The position numbers and the translations under genes are program-made. From the UHGV virus genome UHGV-0466892: a DNA stretch of 41,858 nucleotides; one strand, written 5' to 3'. Shown one piece after another: positions 26,887 through 41,807 of this stretch. The notes beneath the pieces were generated by a model. The model saw only the letters and a list, made by a program, of their open reading frames with translations. It ran no database searches and had not been told where the DNA came from. Numbering within the stretch: position 1 is the first letter of the stretch; each line of letters begins with the position of its first letter. This stretch comes from a virus.

Positions 26887-27135
26887 TCAGACCGTTGATT
26901 TCATATTATCAGAAGGTGGGGTTACCCGGTAGCCGAGACGGTGAATAAACTGCATAAAACCATTAGGAGTAAAGACCTCTTCATCATCCAGCAAAGGCCG
27001 CATAGAAACCATGCCATTGACGCGATAAATTAGATGCCTGCCCGATGAAGGAAAGCTAAACACCACGCAGCCGTCAGACCTTCTTACAATGTCATACCAG
27101 TTGTCATCTGACGTTTGCAAAGCTGAATCACTCAC
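26887..27135 (-). CDS. hypothetical protein
   Basis: 82-aa ORF; no motif recognised. Confidence 0.35.
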   Translation of the reverse strand: MSDSALQTSDDNWYDIVRRSDGCVVFSFPSSGRHLIYRVNGMVSMRPLLDDEEVFTPNGFMQFIHRLGYRVTPPSDNMKSTV

Positions 27136-27288: not shown

Positions 27289-27486
27289 CTAGAGGATGGA
27301 TTCGATTTTCTTTTTATCGTCCTTGTCTCCACCGAAAACACTTAACCCATCGGACCCGGCACGGCGGATTGTGAGCCTGCAATTGTCATAGTGATCATTC
27401 AGGCGCTTAAGCAATTCTTTCTCCAGTGCTGGTACCGCGCCTTTAGGAAGTTCTTTCATGCGATCAATGGTTAATTCAACTTTCAT
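27289..27486 (-). CDS. dinI: DinI-like SOS-regulated protein
   Basis: MKVELTIDRMKELPKGAVPALEKELLKRLNDHY... resembles DinI; start set at the second ATG, which has a GGAGG Shine-Dalgarno; LexA box just upstream. Confidence 0.7.
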   Translation of the reverse strand: MKVELTIDRMKELPKGAVPALEKELLKRLNDHYDNCRLTIRRAGSDGLSVFGGDKDDKKKIESIL

Positions 27487-27504
27487 AATGGCCTCCATTG
27501 CATG

Positions 27505-27524
27505 TACTGTGTTTTTATACAGTA
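27505..27524. promoter_or_regulatory. LexA (SOS) box TACTGTGTTTTTATACAGTA
   Basis: Perfect CTGT-N8-ACAG palindrome with flanking TA, located just upstream of the dinI-like start. Confidence 0.7.
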
Positions 27525-27817: not shown

Positions 27818-28285
27818 TTAATCTTCAAAAAGCTTAAAAGCCAAGTAAGCAACACTTGCGACTGCTGCGACAGGTGCCACCGCTGTGATTATTGCCCCGG
27901 CGGCCATTCCTCCTCCAACAACCGAACCAACGGCTGCCATTCCGGATGAGATCGACGCAGCCCCTGCCGTTCCTGCTGCGCCTGCTAAAGATGCAACACT
28001 GGCTCCAACTGTTCCAGCTGTTGCAGACATTATAGTAGCAGCTGACCCACCAGTAACGGCCGAAGCTGTAGTGGCTGCAACGCCAGCAGTTCCGATCAAT
28101 CCACCAGCACCGACAATTGTTGAAGATTTTATTTCTGAATTTGAATCAAGCACAGTTTTTCCAGGCGACCGAGAGTTCGAATCTTCTATAGTGTTCTCCC
28201 TAACGGCTTGTTCAAGGGCCTCGGCAAATACTCTCACTGCCTGCTGGGGTGATGAATGTTGCACAACTTCATTCTTAGTATCCAT
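27818..28285 (-). CDS. Gly/Ala-rich glycine-zipper membrane protein (cargo gene)
   Basis: 155 aa; polar ~60-aa N-terminus, then about 90 aa of G/A/S/T/V-rich hydrophobic sequence with repeated small-xxx-small spacing; own upstream AT-rich region and downstream terminator. Confidence 0.55.
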   Translation of the reverse strand: MDTKNEVVQHSSPQQAVRVFAEALEQAVRENTIEDSNSRSPGKTVLDSNSEIKSSTIVGAGGLIGTAGVAATTASAVTGGSAATIMSATAGTVGASVASLAGAAGTAGAASISSGMAAVGSVVGGGMAAGAIITAVAPVAAVASVAYLAFKLFED

Positions 28286-28413
28286 TATCGCTCTCCGGGT
28301 ATAATTTCATTGCTGTCCATTATCATAAACTAAGATTTACACTCTCAGTAATGTCCATCTCACAATGCATAATCAAATACACTCGAAACATTATTCATTG
28401 TTGCTACGGTGAG

Positions 28414-28893
28414 TCAGCTAAAATCAATACGCTCATGATTCATTCTGTCATGTACACATGGCTCACCGTCTTTCGGCTCAGGCCATTTGCGCTGTTTGTT
28501 AATCGCCAACTTCTCTACCATCGCTTGGGTAATCTGTTCATCACTGATACCGGCACGACGCTGCGTATCCCATAACAGGAATTGCATGTCAGCCCATTCG
28601 CTAAGGTCGCCAGGTTCAGCAGCAGCCTCGAGCGCTTCTTTAGAAAGGTGCTTCAGAGGACCAACTGGACCGACATCGCCGAAAGTAGCCTGTGACCATG
28701 TAGCATGCTCACGGCGTACTTGCTCACGGGCCATCGACTCCAGAACTCCATTGATCACCTTCACAGCATCAGCCATCGCATAGCCGACATTACCGCCGTC
28801 GCTTTGTGCTGCTGCTTTGCTGAGTATTTCACGTATCTGGTGCAGGCGATCGAGTGATACAGGACCGTGCGCCGGGTGGTTGTTAGTTGTCAT
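28414..28893 (-). CDS. DUF550-like protein (putative dATP/dGTP pyrophosphohydrolase domain)
   Basis: 159-aa ORF; family assignment from memory of prophage DUF550 proteins, not verified. Confidence 0.45.
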   Translation of the reverse strand: MTTNNHPAHGPVSLDRLHQIREILSKAAAQSDGGNVGYAMADAVKVINGVLESMAREQVRREHATWSQATFGDVGPVGPLKHLSKEALEAAAEPGDLSEWADMQFLLWDTQRRAGISDEQITQAMVEKLAINKQRKWPEPKDGEPCVHDRMNHERIDFS

Positions 28894-29261
28894 GCTGACG
28901 CTCCTTCTTGATATTTTTCGAACCAGAACACCACTGGGTCAGATTTCATTTCAACCAATCCCATACGAACCAGCGCTTTGCCTTTCCCGGACACAAGGAA
29001 TTCACGACGACCATCACCGATAATTCGCCGGTAATCTTCCAGGCTACTGCAATGCTTGTGCAGATTGCATGGGTGGCATGCTGGAACCATGTTTGATATA
29101 TCGTCACGTTCCTGGTGAAGCATATTTCCATCAAAACGAATGACCGGTTTTACATGGTCAGCATGCCCGCCTTTCTCTGGTAGTTCGCATCCACAATAAG
29201 CACAGCGACCGCCAAACTTCATGCGTAGCTCTGCGCGTTGCTTTTTGGTAATAGTTGTCAT
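28890..29261 (-). CDS. HNH endonuclease
   Basis: 123 aa; CAYCGC ... HADHVKP ... CHPCNLHKH is a classic HNH / zinc-finger nuclease motif. Confidence 0.85.
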   Translation of the reverse strand: MTTITKKQRAELRMKFGGRCAYCGCELPEKGGHADHVKPVIRFDGNMLHQERDDISNMVPACHPCNLHKHCSSLEDYRRIIGDGRREFLVSGKGKALVRMGLVEMKSDPVVFWFEKYQEGASA

Positions 29262-30993: not shown

Positions 30994-31551
30994 TCATAGC
31001 GCACCACCCAGCATCGTTGTAACCATCGCCATAATGGGCGCCACAGAATCAGGTCCGTCCAGGTAGAGCTTGGCTACGATGCTCTCGCTGATTTCCTTCA
31101 TCCGTTCGTGTCTGGGGGCTTTGAGGACGACAGCCTGTATCGCCTCAGCGTCTTCTTTCACCGACCTGGCGACACGAACCGCAAAGCAGTCGTGCTTAAT
31201 CACGCGATCCCGGTACGCCAGCGGCAGAACCGAAATTATTACCGGCGCCAGCTGCTCGACGTTCGCCCGGTAGGCCGGTGATTTCTCGTGGTTGTCCAGC
31301 CAGCGAAACAGCTTCACGTTCCACACATCGGCGCTGCCGGTCATGTCAATGCTGTCAAGCTCGGCCTGTTCGGCAGCCTCTTTAATCGCCAGAGCGACCG
31401 CCACGCGGCCCTCTGCCGCCGCCCAGGCGCGGACGGCAGAACAGATAGCCCGGTGATCGACCGGCTGGCCTTCAGCCTCACTGTGTTGATACTGGAATTT
31501 CAGGTGCTCTGATGGCGCTCTGTTATTCTGTTGAAAAGAAAGTGTTTGCAT
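30994..31551 (-). CDS. YdaT-like protein (Rac prophage-type putative toxin/regulator), uncertain
   Basis: 185-aa ORF directly downstream of the Cro/YdaS-like gene, as ydaS-ydaT in Rac. Confidence 0.4.
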   Translation of the reverse strand: MQTLSFQQNNRAPSEHLKFQYQHSEAEGQPVDHRAICSAVRAWAAAEGRVAVALAIKEAAEQAELDSIDMTGSADVWNVKLFRWLDNHEKSPAYRANVEQLAPVIISVLPLAYRDRVIKHDCFAVRVARSVKEDAEAIQAVVLKAPRHERMKEISESIVAKLYLDGPDSVAPIMAMVTTMLGGAL

Positions 31552-31562
31552 TGTCAGTGCTC

Positions 31563-31781
31563 CTACTTTGGTAATCCGTCAGTGGGATTTGGATAGAGAT
31601 CAGGGCGCAGCTCGTGGGGGGTTACGCCTGTCATTTTGAAAATCGGGAAGATATAGCTTGGCGGGACGATCCCTTGGTCACGATTCTTCCAATGACTTAC
31701 AGACATACTCGTCACACCAAGCGCGATGCTGAGCTTTCTGGCAGAGCCAGCGGCTTTAATTGCTTTATCGAGTGCGGACAT
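31563..31781 (-). CDS. cro: Cro-like HTH regulator (YdaS family)
   Basis: 72 aa; KLSIALGVTSMSVSHWKNRDQGIVP ... ELRPDLYP matches the YdaS/Cro-like HTH pattern; AGGAG Shine-Dalgarno; divergent from the repressor. Confidence 0.7.
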   Translation of the reverse strand: MSALDKAIKAAGSARKLSIALGVTSMSVSHWKNRDQGIVPPSYIFPIFKMTGVTPHELRPDLYPNPTDGLPK

Positions 31782-31810
31782 GTGCTTCTCCTGCTTATTG
31801 ATAGCAGAAG

Positions 31811-31875
31811 TAAACCACAGATTTATACTTCATGCAAACTTTGGATTTATTGCGTGCATAAACCAAATATTTACA
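31811..31875. promoter_or_regulatory. OR-like operator cluster with divergent promoters
   Basis: Three related 15-17-bp sites: TAAACCACAGATTTATA (31811-31827), AAACTTTGGATTTATT (31836-31851), TAAACCAAATATTTACA (31859-31875), about 24 bp apart, between the cro and cI starts. Confidence 0.6.
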
Positions 31876-31883
31876 ATGACCAT

Positions 31884-32273
31884 ATGAGAAAAGAAGAACC
31901 CAACCTCGTTCTGGTGGAGCGCCTTACTGAGATCACTGATCGCGGCGTTACCAAAGCAGACATGGCAAGAATAGCTGGAGTCACCCCTCAGGCCGTAAAC
32001 GGCTGGTTCAAAAAAGGCGTGATTAGTAAGAAATCGGCACTGGCCATAGCCGACGCTGTTGGTATTTCTGTCGCCTGGCTACTCGGTGAAGACGTTGGGG
32101 AGAAAGACGGTCTCAAACCGGACGAACAGCGTTTGCTCGAGCTCTACCGCCAGTTACCGGAAGAAGAGCAGCAGAACATGCTCCGCATTTTTGCGCTTCG
32201 CCTGAAAGAGTTAGATGAGCTGTACGAGAAGTACATGAAGGGTCGGATTCGATCGCAAGGTGAGCAAACCTAA
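31884..32273 (+). CDS. cI: CI-like repressor (XRE-family HTH)
   Basis: Start set at ATG 31884 (MRKEEPNLVLVERL...); HTH segment GVTKADMARIAGVTPQAVNGWFKKG; divergent from cro across the operators. Confidence 0.7.
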   Translation: MRKEEPNLVLVERLTEITDRGVTKADMARIAGVTPQAVNGWFKKGVISKKSALAIADAVGISVAWLLGEDVGEKDGLKPDEQRLLELYRQLPEEEQQNMLRIFALRLKELDELYEKYMKGRIRSQGEQT

Positions 32274-32337
32274 ACCAGTAGTATCTAATTCCATGTAATA
32301 AAAATATTTCAAGATTTAATATCTTCTGGAGGATTCG

Positions 32338-32619
32338 GTGTCTAAAGAAACAACCGTCGAACTTATGCATCTTAATGATGTAATCGAAGCGAAAAATTTC
32401 ATCGAGACCAATGCTGACGGTGTCGTAACAATCGGCACACAAAATGCCGGTTACGAAGTTTACAATTTTGTGTTCCTGAATAGCAGCCCGATCATCGGTA
32501 CGGATAATGCGGATATAGTCGTCAAGGGCATGCAGCGAACCAAAGTTGTGTCTGTGACTTTAAGCAAACAAAAGGCTTATGATTTTTATCAATCCTTAAA
32601 AAGTATGTTTGAGGAATAA
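32338..32619 (+). CDS. hypothetical protein co-transcribed with cI
   Basis: 93 aa; GTG start with GGAGG Shine-Dalgarno; no recognisable motif. Confidence 0.5.
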   Translation: MSKETTVELMHLNDVIEAKNFIETNADGVVTIGTQNAGYEVYNFVFLNSSPIIGTDNADIVVKGMQRTKVVSVTLSKQKAYDFYQSLKSMFEE

Positions 32620-32622
32620 TAA

Positions 32623-33147
32623 TTGATGGATGCGGCTCAATCATCTCTTGGTGAAGGGAAGTTATTGATTGCATATTCAGACCATAGCGGAGCTACAGTA
32701 GGCTTAGAGTTTTCATCAGTAGCTTCGAGCCAAGCAACCTTCCTTATGGGTGCTTGTAGTTTTGCCGCTTCGGATAAACAAAAACGGATTGTCACATCAG
32801 TTGCTATGGATGATACTGAAATCATTCATACGTCAACTGAAGATGGAGGTGACGACATGGAAAAGAGATTGGCTATTCTTGAGGTTGAAGTTGCCCACAT
32901 CAAGAAAGATGTTGCCGAGATAAAAAACACAGTTTCAAAAGTTGATACGACAGTGAATTCACTGGACAAAAATATGGCTGTAGTTTTGGAGAGGCTGTCT
33001 AGTATCAAAGAGTCTGTAGACAAAAAGCCCTCATCAGACACAGTGGACAAGAAAATCTCTGATGCTAAATTGGCGATTCTCTTAGGTGTCCCTGCGATTA
33101 TCGCCATTGGTACAGGGCTGTACAAAGCTTTTATGCACTTCTTTTAG
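32623..33147 (+). CDS. tail-anchored coiled-coil membrane protein (XhlA-like C-terminal half)
   Basis: 174 aa; N-terminal ~75-aa domain, then coiled coil (MEKRLAILEVEVAHIKKDVAEIKNTVSKVDTTVNSLDKNM...), then C-terminal transmembrane helix LAILLGVPAIIAIGTGLYKAF. Confidence 0.5.
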   Translation: MMDAAQSSLGEGKLLIAYSDHSGATVGLEFSSVASSQATFLMGACSFAASDKQKRIVTSVAMDDTEIIHTSTEDGGDDMEKRLAILEVEVAHIKKDVAEIKNTVSKVDTTVNSLDKNMAVVLERLSSIKESVDKKPSSDTVDKKISDAKLAILLGVPAIIAIGTGLYKAFMHFF

Positions 33148-33220
33148 TCAGATTTGGTCAATACGCCTGAGTTATAAGGCTCTCAGCTACTAACTCTGTC
33201 GCCTTCCCCGAACCTTCTCA

Positions 33221-33246
33221 TCCCGACCACGCGTCGGGATTTTTTT
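33221..33246 (+). terminator. rho-independent terminator ending the cI operon
   Basis: cccgac cacgc gtcggg followed by a run of eight T. Confidence 0.8.
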
Positions 33247-33285
33247 TGCCTGCGATTCTGCAGACGTGTCACAAAACCCAGCCAC

Positions 33286-33349
33286 ATAAACCTCAGATTT
33301 ACAATTAACACTAACCTTAAGTTGACATGTATATAAACCAGTGATTTAA
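33286..33349 (+). promoter_or_regulatory. pL-like promoter with OL operators
   Basis: TTGACA (33321-33326), 17-bp spacer, TTTAAT (33344-33349); operator-like sites TAAACCTCAGATTTA (33286-33300) and TAAACCAGTGATTTA (33333-33347) share the OR consensus. Confidence 0.6.
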
Positions 33350-33602
33350 TCTAACTCACCAAGACGCACCACGAACCACCCAGGCATGGAGCCCACGAAG
33401 TAGCCGTCCGGGGCATACGAAAACCGGAATGAGGTGGTGATATTAACGCGCAGTAGGTTTGAAACGTTCCGCCAGCCTGGCGACAAGGGCAAACACAGAA
33501 GTGAGCTTCGCGGTGGTGAATTGCAGAGTTAAAACGCTCAACTGTGAAGATCAGCGTCACGGCACCACCAGCGAAGTTCACTCAGCAATAGTGGAGAACA
33601 TC

Positions 33603-33809
33603 ATGGTTCATCAGCACTACGGTACACAGACAGTAAACCGCGGCGCAGTTCAGCCGGGGATGCTTGTAAAACACAAAGACTCAACCTGGACCGCATCTGC
33701 TAACGCACGCGGTCGCCTGTATCTTCACCGTGGCATCGAACGTACCTACACCAAAGATTTGCTGGTTGAGGTTTATCTAAACGGTTTAGGACATGGCCTT
33801 AGCCATTAA
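33603..33809 (+). CDS. small early protein (hypothetical)
   Basis: ATG 33603 with GGAGA Shine-Dalgarno; 68 aa; first ORF after the pL leader. Confidence 0.4.
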   Translation: MVHQHYGTQTVNRGAVQPGMLVKHKDSTWTASANARGRLYLHRGIERTYTKDLLVEVYLNGLGHGLSH

Positions 33810-33820
33810 CGGAGTGAGTT

Positions 33821-33982
33821 ATGCAGGAGAAAAAATGCGCGTACTGCCGCAAGCCGATCAAGCAAGGGAAGGAAGTTAAAAACGAACTGCTCTTTATCCA
33901 CGGCACGCAGTTGAAACGCGAGCAACGTGATTACTGTTCAGTACGTTGCGCTTCGTTCGACCAGATGGCCCACGAAGCATAA
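33821..33982 (+). CDS. small zinc-ribbon protein (53 aa)
   Basis: Not in the ORF track (under 60 aa). ATG 33821 with GGAGTGAG Shine-Dalgarno; MQEKKCAYCRKPIKQGK...DYCSVRCASF contains CxxC ... CxxxC. Confidence 0.4.
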   Translation: MQEKKCAYCRKPIKQGKEVKNELLFIHGTQLKREQRDYCSVRCASFDQMAHEA

Positions 33983-39835: not shown

Positions 39836-40060
39836 AAGTTGCCCACTCAAAGCTACACGCAATGTAACACTAGTTCGCAGAGTGTTATGGTTTACATCCT
39901 TGAAAGCCTGCTGGATAAGGGTTTAGCGTAACAGAACGTTTTTACGCGGAATTGTTCGTAATATGCCAAATGACAATTTAAGAAAGTGTTCTAATTTATT
40001 AGAAATTTGCACTTAAATCAAAAAGTTACGGACAATTCAACCACCAGTCAATAAATTAAA

Positions 40061-41205: not shown

Positions 41206-41807
41206 TGACACAGGCAAAATTAAACAGTGAATTTATTGCCACAGTAGCGGGTGATATTACCGTCTATAACTATGACAACACGACACGGGAATACATTTCA
41301 TCATCAACAGAATATCTTGCCGTTGGCGTCGGTATCCCGGCATGTTCTTGTTTAGATGCGCCAGTTACACATAAAGCTGGTTATGCAATCTGCCGTTCTG
41401 CAGATTTTAACTCATGGGAATATGTGCCAGACCATCGCGGTGAAATCATCTATAGCACCGAAACAGGAGAATCGAAAGAAATCACAGCTCTGGGTGATTA
41501 CCCTGAAAATACAACCACTATCGCCCCGTTAACGCCATATGATAAATGGGATGGTGAGAAATGGGTGACGGATACTGAGGCACAGCATAGCGCCGCAGTA
41601 GAAGCGGCAGAAGCACAGCGCCAGTCACTGATTGATGCAGCAATGGCTTCCATTAGTCTGATTCAGCTGAAATTACAGGCCGGACGTAAACTTACGCAGG
41701 CAGAAACAACCAGGCTTAACGCTGTGCTGGATTACATTGACGCGGTGACGGCAACAGATACCAGCACCGCGCCGGATGTCATCTGGCCTGAACTGCCGGA
41801 GGTGTAG
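41205..41807 (+). CDS. tail fiber assembly protein (alternative Tfa)
   Basis: 200 aa; C-terminus ...TDTSTAPDVIWPELPEV is a typical Tfa ending; ATGA-coupled to the fiber cassette. Confidence 0.85.
   Translation: MTQAKLNSEFIATVAGDITVYNYDNTTREYISSSTEYLAVGVGIPACSCLDAPVTHKAGYAICRSADFNSWEYVPDHRGEIIYSTETGESKEITALGDYPENTTTIAPLTPYDKWDGEKWVTDTEAQHSAAVEAAEAQRQSLIDAAMASISLIQLKLQAGRKLTQAETTRLNAVLDYIDAVTATDTSTAPDVIWPELPEV

Follow-up and report, generated by a model that had tools for sequence, protein, structure and literature searches.

The closest described relatives of the locus treated here are the immunity regions of the Gifsy prophages, in which GfoR and GfhR have been defined genetically as immunity repressors (Lemire, Figueroa-Bossi & Bossi 2011, PMC3121763). 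Gifsy-1 and Gifsy-3 are experimentally heteroimmune; GfoR, GfhR and GtgR undergo no cleavage upon induction and lose their activity when an antirepressor binds them, with GfoA and GfhA each inactivating both GfoR and GfhR. The accessible part of the same paper holds no definition of the Gifsy operators at the level of sequence. In a second described system, that of prophage CP-933P of Escherichia coli O157:H7, footprints on the right and left operators (OR and OL) and reporter fusions of the rightward and leftward early promoters (PR and PL) and of the promoter for repressor maintenance (PRM) show function, and the operators have a mixed direct-repeat and inverted-repeat character (Jurenas et al. 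2021, PMC8630535). Here, the corresponding region (positions 31782–33350) of the UHGV virus genome UHGV-0466892, a stretch of 41,858 nucleotides that was analysed at its full length and is called the window in the following, is described. It is highly probable that this region serves a lambdoid prophage of the Gifsy/Rac-like kind as an immunity switch under the control of an antirepressor, and that a series of similar pseudo-palindromic sites found in it are the operators of its repressor.

With Gifsy-1 and Gifsy-3 of strain ATCC14028 the window shares the OR/PRM/OL/PL layout of the gfoR and gfhR loci, a short repressor (predicted here to be non-cleavable), an operon made of a LexA box, dinI and an antirepressor gene, and the presence of kil and recE/recT downstream of PL; it differs in the cargo, which includes parA in Gifsy and consists of two open reading frames (ORFs) of unknown function here, and in the host, which is E. 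coli-like here. With CP-933P it shares a short repressor gene divergent from a cro gene of the YdaS type (the intergenic distance being 102 bp here and 97 bp there), a YdaT/CII-like gene after cro, the geometry of a leaderless repressor message, cargo after the repressor gene and a PL with matching operators further downstream, whereas CP-933P has an operator consensus of GTTTAGTAA repeats and a -10 hexamer TAAACT. Phage lambda provides the general plan: cro and the repressor gene point away from each other, and the interval between them holds three operators with a spacing of 23–24 bp, of which OR1 and OR2 lie over PR and OR3 over PRM; the repressor mRNA is leaderless (a prediction in the case of the window); and the repressor operon, with its accessory genes, ends before OL and a PL of the same direction. 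The window departs from lambda in that the repressor has no S24 domain for autocleavage and oligomerisation, the operators are unrelated in sequence, PL is not followed by an N gene and induction is probably due to an antirepressor. Finally, P22 c2, 434 repressor and 434 Cro (PDB 2r1j, 3jxb, 2or1 and 2cro) match the predicted fold of the N-terminal domain (template modelling score 0.74–0.79, normalised to the target, over 60–64 residues) and likewise act on pseudo-palindromic operators with half-sites about one helical turn apart, but differ in sequence (22–25% identity), in the operators themselves and in the C-terminal domain.

Putative operators and promoters, and the repressor

The operator pattern TAAAC-N5-ATTTA was searched in the whole window, with significance taken from 100 shuffles. 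It occurs five times as an exact match, against 0.05 expected, and none of the 100 shuffles reached five. Four of these matches, all on the plus strand, lie in the immunity region (OR1, OR3, OL3 and OL1; table 1), where OR2 follows the form CAAAC-N5-ATTTA, with one mismatch, so that four exact sites and one near match fall within 1.6 kb. The original prediction, made from the letters of the DNA and a list of its ORFs, had counted five sites of the exact form in this region; four are indeed exact, while the one at 31835 is the near match. The three sites said to lie between cro and the repressor gene at about 24-bp spacing are exactly 24 + 24 bp apart, and the promoter TTGACA-N17-TTTAAT is found as described, after the terminator of the repressor operon and flanked by sites, of which that at 33334 overlaps the -10. 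The two OL sites that had been proposed are both exact, but a third, degenerate one (OL2) covers the -35, in a register 24 bp after OL3 and 23 bp before OL1. Thus, OL probably has three sites (24 + 23-bp spacing) rather than two, because the left half of the middle site is conserved, the -35 makes up its right half and the site is near-consensus in several relatives, being one mismatch from consensus in some of them (e.g. TAAACCCATCATTGA). The proposed likeness to the OR/OL architecture of lambda, with a shared and distinct consensus, is borne out by the conservation and covariation found among relatives (see below). No description of this operator variant was found in the literature searched.

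The remaining exact match in the window (TAAACAGTGAATTTA, at 41221–41235) is not of the extended TAAACC form and lies in an ORF past the end of the prophage, the homology with the prophage of E. coli AR_0119 stopping near 39996; it is probably a chance occurrence.

Table 1. Features of the immunity region and of the induction module in the window.
Feature	Position	Strand	Sequence and context
OR1	31811..31825	+	TAAACCACAGATTTA; 17-mer GTAAACCACAGATTTAT (31810-31826); overlaps spacer and -10 of the leftward PR
OR2	31835..31849	+	CAAACTTTGGATTTA, one mismatch; overlaps PR -35, abuts PRM -35
OR3	31859..31873	+	TAAACCAAATATTTA, exact motif; right half extends into PRM -10
OL3 (distal)	33287..33301	+	TAAACCTCAGATTTA, exact motif
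OL2 (degenerate)	33311..33325	+	CTAACCTTAAGTTGA; right half is the PL -35
OL1	33334..33348	+	TAAACCAGTGATTTA, exact motif; in PL spacer and first four bases of TTTAAT
PR (putative)	31809..31837	-	TTGCAT (31837-31832), 17-bp spacer ending TGG, TTTACT (31814-31809)
PRM (putative)	31850..31884	+	TTGCGT (31850-55), 16-bp spacer, TACAAT (31872-77), 6 nt, ATG at A31884
PL (putative)	33322..33358	+	TTGACA (33322-27), 17-bp spacer ending TGA (extended -10), TTTAAT (33345-50)
Repressor gene	31884..32273	+	129 aa; Pfam HTH_3 only
Intrinsic terminator of repressor operon	33220..33247	+	8-bp stem (33220-33240) with 5 GC pairs, then T7 run
cro-like gene	31563..31781	-	72 aa; YdaS family helix-turn-helix, Pfam YdaS_toxin E = 1.4e-13
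YdaT/CII-like gene	30994-31551		185 aa; leftward of OR; Pfam YdaT_toxin E = 1.5e-17; PHROG 163, CII-like activator
Cargo ORF 1	32338-32619	+	93 aa; PHROG 12039, function unknown
Cargo ORF 2	32626-33147	+	173 aa; PHROG 12602, function unknown; coiled coil, C-terminal membrane helix
LexA box	27505..27524	-	TACTGTATAAAAACACAGTA; upstream of dinI-antirepressor operon; one mismatch from search pattern, expectation 0.11
dinI homologue	27289-27498	-	PHROG 189
Antirepressor gene (gfoA homologue)	26887..27135	-	82 aa, GTG start; downstream of dinI homologue

The sites are placed with respect to three putative promoters. Transcription from PR is predicted to start near 31802, with a Shine-Dalgarno (SD) sequence AGGAG ahead of the cro ATG at 31781, and GfoR-type relatives have PR arranged alike, as TTGACA-N17-TTTAAT. 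The predicted start of PL is near 33357/8, and the genes downstream of it are kil (33603–33809), ydaE, recE and recT; when different immunity types are compared, conservation resumes at CACCAAGACG, i.e. at this predicted start.

In Pfam the 129-residue repressor shows no S24 peptidase domain. By its sequence it is assigned not to the lambda CI type but to the short GfoR/GfhR (Gifsy) family, with 62% identity to GfoR (over 117 aa, E = 2e-54) and 74% to GfhR (over 117 aa, E = 2e-66), which in the C-terminal half rise to about 75% and 90%, respectively. An AlphaFold2 (AF2) model built from homologues of the protein (mean predicted local distance difference test score 83.9) has an N-terminal domain of five helices, with the recognition helix at residues 35–44 (PQAVNGWFKK), a linker of lower confidence at residues 68–78 and two C-terminal helices (79–89 and 93–127). 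Foldseek matches the N-terminal domain to those of P22 c2, 434 repressor and 434 Cro at a root-mean-square deviation of about 2 Å and with weak E-values, as expected for a domain of only 60 residues, and the modelled fold is compatible with a dimer that reads two half-sites about one helical turn apart. A sequence search of the PDB returned only spurious matches to polyubiquitin repeats (i-Evalue about 250 per stretch) and no PaaR2-like structure.

The start of the repressor gene deserves a comment of its own. The hexamer TACAAT ends 6 nt before the ATG at 31884, with no SD sequence, and an arrangement of -10-like hexamer, gap and ATG recurs in all five of the immunity types defined below, the gap measuring 6 nt in four of them and 7 nt in type E. 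The geometry of CP-933P matches (GATAAT, 6 nt, ATG), and there the paaR2 mRNA is leaderless, as determined by rapid amplification of 5′ cDNA ends (5′RACE) and N-terminal sequencing (PMC8630535). In the long form of the gfhR ORF, the AUG that is further upstream sits on OR1, which fits the published position of the gfhR promoter between its two AUGs (PMC3121763). By this geometry the repressor mRNA of the window would also be leaderless, starting at A31884. RefSeq places the start of the repressor at GTG 31854, inside OR3, and other databases hold versions of 137–161 residues. Such upstream starts probably reflect a systematic mis-annotation, since the position of the -10 hexamer, 6 nt ahead of the ATG, and the lack of an SD sequence point to 31884.

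Conservation and covariation among related loci

Conservation within the immunity type was assessed at 87 loci that encode the same repressor recognition helix, taken from E. coli genomes, from one genome per species, from IMG/VR and from Salmonella, and comprising 72 distinct OR sequences and 77 distinct OL regions. A motif search in related prophages had been suggested earlier as a check, and it finds the sites near invariant at these loci. OR1 (GTAAACCA[C/T]AGATTTA), which takes the form of only 6 distinct 17-mers, and OR3 (TAAACCAAATATTTACAAT) are essentially invariant among the distinct OR sequences; in OR2 the left GCAAA and the right TTTATTG are invariant and the centre varies; and the spacers between the operators reach 1.0–1.7 bits of entropy. 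On the other side of the cargo, an OL1-like site (TAAACCAGTGATTTAAT, with at most 3 mismatches in 17), accompanied by TTGACA, is found 998–2514 bp past the repressor stop codon in 83 of the 87 loci, and the four loci that lack it end 337–1462 bp after the repressor gene. Among the distinct OL regions OL1 occurs as six distinct 17-mers, OL3 is mostly TAAACC-N3-GATTTAC, the left half of the OL2 position is conserved as xAAyC, and TTGACA and TGnTTTAAT of PL are nearly invariant. OL persists though the cargo that separates it from the repressor gene differs from locus to locus.

A wider comparison, to which the gfoR and gfhR loci were added by an exact-pattern search with the primers of Lemire et al. 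(PMC3121763), takes in repressors that are 60–86% identical and that split into types, the C-terminal half (WLLGEDVGEKDGLKPDEQRLLELYRQLPEEEQQNMLRIF…KELDELYEKYMKGRIR) being near constant and the N-terminal helix-turn-helix (HTH) domain differing. Rows in which the automatic OL finder missed a -35 other than TTGAC[AC] (L007 and L019), or in which a wrongly chosen start codon had shifted the OR register (L029), were ignored. Five immunity types can be distinguished, between which the sites at OR vary in concert with those at OL, and both vary with the DNA-binding domains at the N-termini of repressor and Cro: (i) type A, to which the window belongs, with half-sites TAAACC and TAAAT(C/A); (ii) type B, with GTAAAG-N5-WTTTAC, which the short form of GfhR resembles; (iii) type C, with TAAAC-N5-GTTTA, the type of GfoR; (iv) type D, similar to A in its operators and identical in the recognition helix, with a different C-terminal domain; and (v) type E, with TAAG(C/T)C in both halves. 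In type E a change of A to G is found symmetrically at positions ±4, G being present in 22 of the 24 half-sites of the four strong sites, and the DNA-binding domain carries nine substitutions, including A37S in the recognition helix. The HTH of Cro also covaries with the operator type, and the C-terminus of Cro (TGVTPHELRPDLYPNPTDGLPK) is constant. OR and OL are separated by 1–2.5 kb of unrelated DNA, so that it is difficult to see why they should vary in step if the proteins encoded in the cassette did not read both.

The repressors of type D (L024–L028) have the recognition helix of the window and similar operators, together with a diverged C-terminal domain. From this pattern DNA specificity and the presumed antirepressor-binding domain appear to assort independently. 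It is possible, though we hold it only tentatively, that the GfoR/GfhR family as a whole forms a combinatorial immunity system, in which a specificity cassette and an antirepressor-sensitive C-terminal domain recombine independently of one another. The cassette would then consist of the repressor N-terminal domain, the HTH of Cro, OR and the matching OL; the conserved joint WLLGEDVGEKDGLKPDEQ would be the point of recombination, and one or two base pairs per half-site would set specificity.

Competing readings of the locus

In the mechanism that we favour, a dimer of the 129-residue repressor, with an HTH of the P22-c2/434 type, would bind pseudo-palindromes of 15–17 bp, (R)TAAACC-N3-(G/T)ATTTA(Y). 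Occupancy of OR1 and OR2 would repress the leftward PR and, with it, cro, ydaT (cII-like), O and P, whereas the location of OR2 next to the weak -35 of PRM and of OR3 over its -10 would result in positive and then negative autoregulation of the repressor. The leaderless repressor mRNA would include the two cargo genes and stop at the 33220 terminator and, about 1.5 kb away from OR, OL1, the weak OL2 and OL3 would repress the rightward PL, which serves kil, ydaE, recE and recT. Cro, which is YdaS-like, presumably acts at the sites of the repressor. Upon DNA damage, LexA would leave the box at 27505–27524, the dinI-antirepressor operon would be expressed, and the GfoA-like protein, presumably by binding to the repressor, would cause its release from DNA. 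Binding itself, the order of occupancy, cooperativity or looping, the promoter start points and the interaction of the antirepressor with the repressor are what we infer for this scheme.

For induction, the antirepressor shares 90% identity with a GfoA-type ORF that is found at the corresponding place in L118, a prophage with gfoR and with the LexA box-dinI-antirepressor arrangement of the window, and the termini of the antirepressor ORF agree with the published gfoA primers (PMC3121763). Thus, a LexA-controlled antirepressor, and not autocleavage, is the probable route of induction, given the absence of an S24 domain and the presence of a LexA box, dinI and a GfoA homologue. A strict lambda-style switch with RecA-stimulated autocleavage of the repressor, for which the lambda-like layout of operators and promoters might be invoked, is practically without a chance, considering also the length of 129 residues, a C-terminal part that is modelled as two helices and the published finding that GfoR, GfhR and GtgR are not cleaved (PMC3121763).

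As regards the induction module itself, the dinI homologue was sought at 28250–29100, by analogy with AR_0119, and was not there; it was located through the LexA box. It ends at an in-frame TAG (…KKIESIL*ETWESADDWFY*), intact relatives reading …SILQETWESADDWFY, in what looks like a nonsense change of CAG to TAG 13 codons short of the normal stop codon. Downstream of the shortened dinI, the antirepressor gene is intact.

Several observations weigh against the favoured mechanism, or against parts of it. OL2 of the window has 4 mismatches in the 10 specified positions and is a weak site. All six operators share one orientation and one half-site asymmetry (TAAACC on the left and, as the reverse complement, TAAAT on the right), for which a simple symmetric-dimer model does not account and which the direction of the promoters does not explain, because PR and PL face opposite ways. 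None of PR, PRM and PL is listed by a consensus promoter scan of the window, so that their assignment rests on position and conservation; PR and PL escape the scan because the -10 has T instead of A at -11, the hexamers TTTACT (PR) and TTTAAT (PL) being non-canonical in this respect, which at PL is partly offset by a TG extended -10, also present at PR, and by a consensus -35. The -35 of PRM fits at 3 of 6 positions only. PaaR2 is merely 19% identical over 81 aa (pairwise E = 5e-4) and, as a remote relative, has to be regarded as a functional analogue rather than a close member of the family. Furthermore, the operators of type A resemble those of GfoR, and OR3 of one relative (TAAACCAAATGTTTA) is a GfoR-type site.

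The asymmetry extends over all sites at 31810–31874 and 33286–33349, and operators of the GfoR type are symmetric; this polarity might reflect a functional one, e.g. repressor and Cro using different half-sites.

These points also temper some expectations that had been attached to the locus. The promoter downstream of the terminator, which had been called strong, has the hexamers and the spacing; given the T at -11 and its absence from the scan, it is at most a putatively strong one. The name cI is appropriate as far as it denotes an immunity repressor, but this is a short one of the Gifsy type that lacks S24. The claim that the DNA directly reveals repressor specificity is only partly right: GfoR (TAAAC-N5-GTTTA) and GfhR (GTAAAG-N5-WTTTAC), relatives that are experimentally heteroimmune, have the core TAAA-N7-TTTA in common with the window, and discrimination comes down to one or two of the inner base pairs in each half-site.

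An immunity distinct from that of GfoR is no more than likely on the sequence comparison, since the operators of type A are so close to those of GfoR. The same architecture could be present with no distinct immunity at all, if the repressor reads essentially the sites of GfoR (Gifsy-1 of ATCC14028) or of another member of the family, which would make the phage homoimmune with a known type. We regard this as unlikely. The core TAAA-N7-TTTA is common to all members, some individual sites are identical, and the half-sites of type A and GfoR differ mainly at two inner positions (TAAACC / TAAATC versus TAAACA); however, within each type these inner positions are conserved at OR as well as at OL in dozens of different sequences, the recognition helices are not alike (TPQAVNGWFKKG versus S[SA]QSVNNWFVRG), and GfoR and GfhR, the operators of which differ about as subtly, are heteroimmune (PMC3121763).

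The repressor might, alternatively, be a local regulator of the two cargo genes, the repeats being autoregulatory or mainly sites for Cro. The 129-residue HTH protein is co-transcribed with two genes of unknown function, and PaaR2 of the PaaR2-PaaA2-ParE2 system was at first taken for the regulator of a toxin-antitoxin module (PMC8630535). Such a role is, nonetheless, quite improbable, for relatives keep the repressor, OR and OL but have other, unrelated cargo in place of the two genes (HicAB, ParA, DUF6932 and others); the sites are found also at PL and PR, which drive early lytic genes, and GfoR and GfhR are immunity repressors by genetic definition (PMC3121763).

It is more improbable still that, instead of operators, the repeats represent parts of promoters or UP elements, or have arisen by chance in AT-rich DNA. 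Several sites do overlap a -10 or -35, and their right half, ATTTA, supplies bases of TTTAAT and TACAAT; against this, OL3 and the right half of OR1 are conserved though outside promoter hexamers, the changes in the half-sites are symmetric, type-specific and in step with the HTH domains at all sites, and the number expected by chance is the 0.05 given above.

Neighbouring genes, cargo and significance

The gene for the replication protein O lies, as do cro and the YdaT/CII-like gene, leftward of OR. The YdaT site of CP-933P (TTGATT-N6-AATCAA) is absent from the window by motif search, with no enrichment. At the other end, the leader of about 250 nt between PL and kil (33357–33602) has no ORF, is conserved across immunity types and is 96% identical to phage mEp237, with a fold z-score of only -1.96 and no Rfam family. 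Rfam gave no match over the whole window at the gathering threshold and, at E ≤ 1 over 31500–33900, only a sub-threshold terminator match.

The two cargo ORFs are co-transcribed with the repressor gene and occupy the slot that corresponds to the position of rexAB in lambda. PADLOC returned no credible match for them, only weak similarities of coiled coils. Among relatives the content of the slot varies (L002–L005 and L033–L036), including HicAB, ParA, DUF6932 plus another ORF, and extra HTH genes, and its length from repressor to OL/PL ranges from 998 to 2514 bp; from its contents it looks like a hotspot for morons or defence genes.

The region is 100% identical to a prophage of E. coli AR_0119, and its cro-OR-repressor part shows 87% identity to PHB10 (MK524177), a phage isolate with type-A immunity. 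Between about 27600 and 29700, i.e. from the dinI operon to the replication genes, the AR_0119 prophage (L001), which is otherwise 99.6% identical, is shorter than the window by 1,429 bp and has a methyltransferase pseudogene; the comparison suggests that part of a nin-like region was replaced locally or received an insertion.

The locus reveals no new mechanism, being an ordinary and well-understood kind of switch. What it provides is a sequence-level definition of the operators for a very common immunity type of enterobacterial prophages, repressors at least 85% identical being found in Escherichia, Salmonella (with one variant on more than 1000 contigs), Klebsiella, Enterobacter and Citrobacter, and the assignment of this type to the antirepressor-controlled Gifsy family; it also flags what is likely a systematic mis-annotation of the start codons of leaderless repressor genes. 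Moreover, the comparison within the family offers a structural explanation for the action of GfoA and GfhA on heteroimmune repressors, for which a shared C-terminal domain combined with a divergent N-terminal one gives a simple rationale. If the combinatorial reading of the family, tentative as it is, were true, immunity groups would become predictable from sequence.

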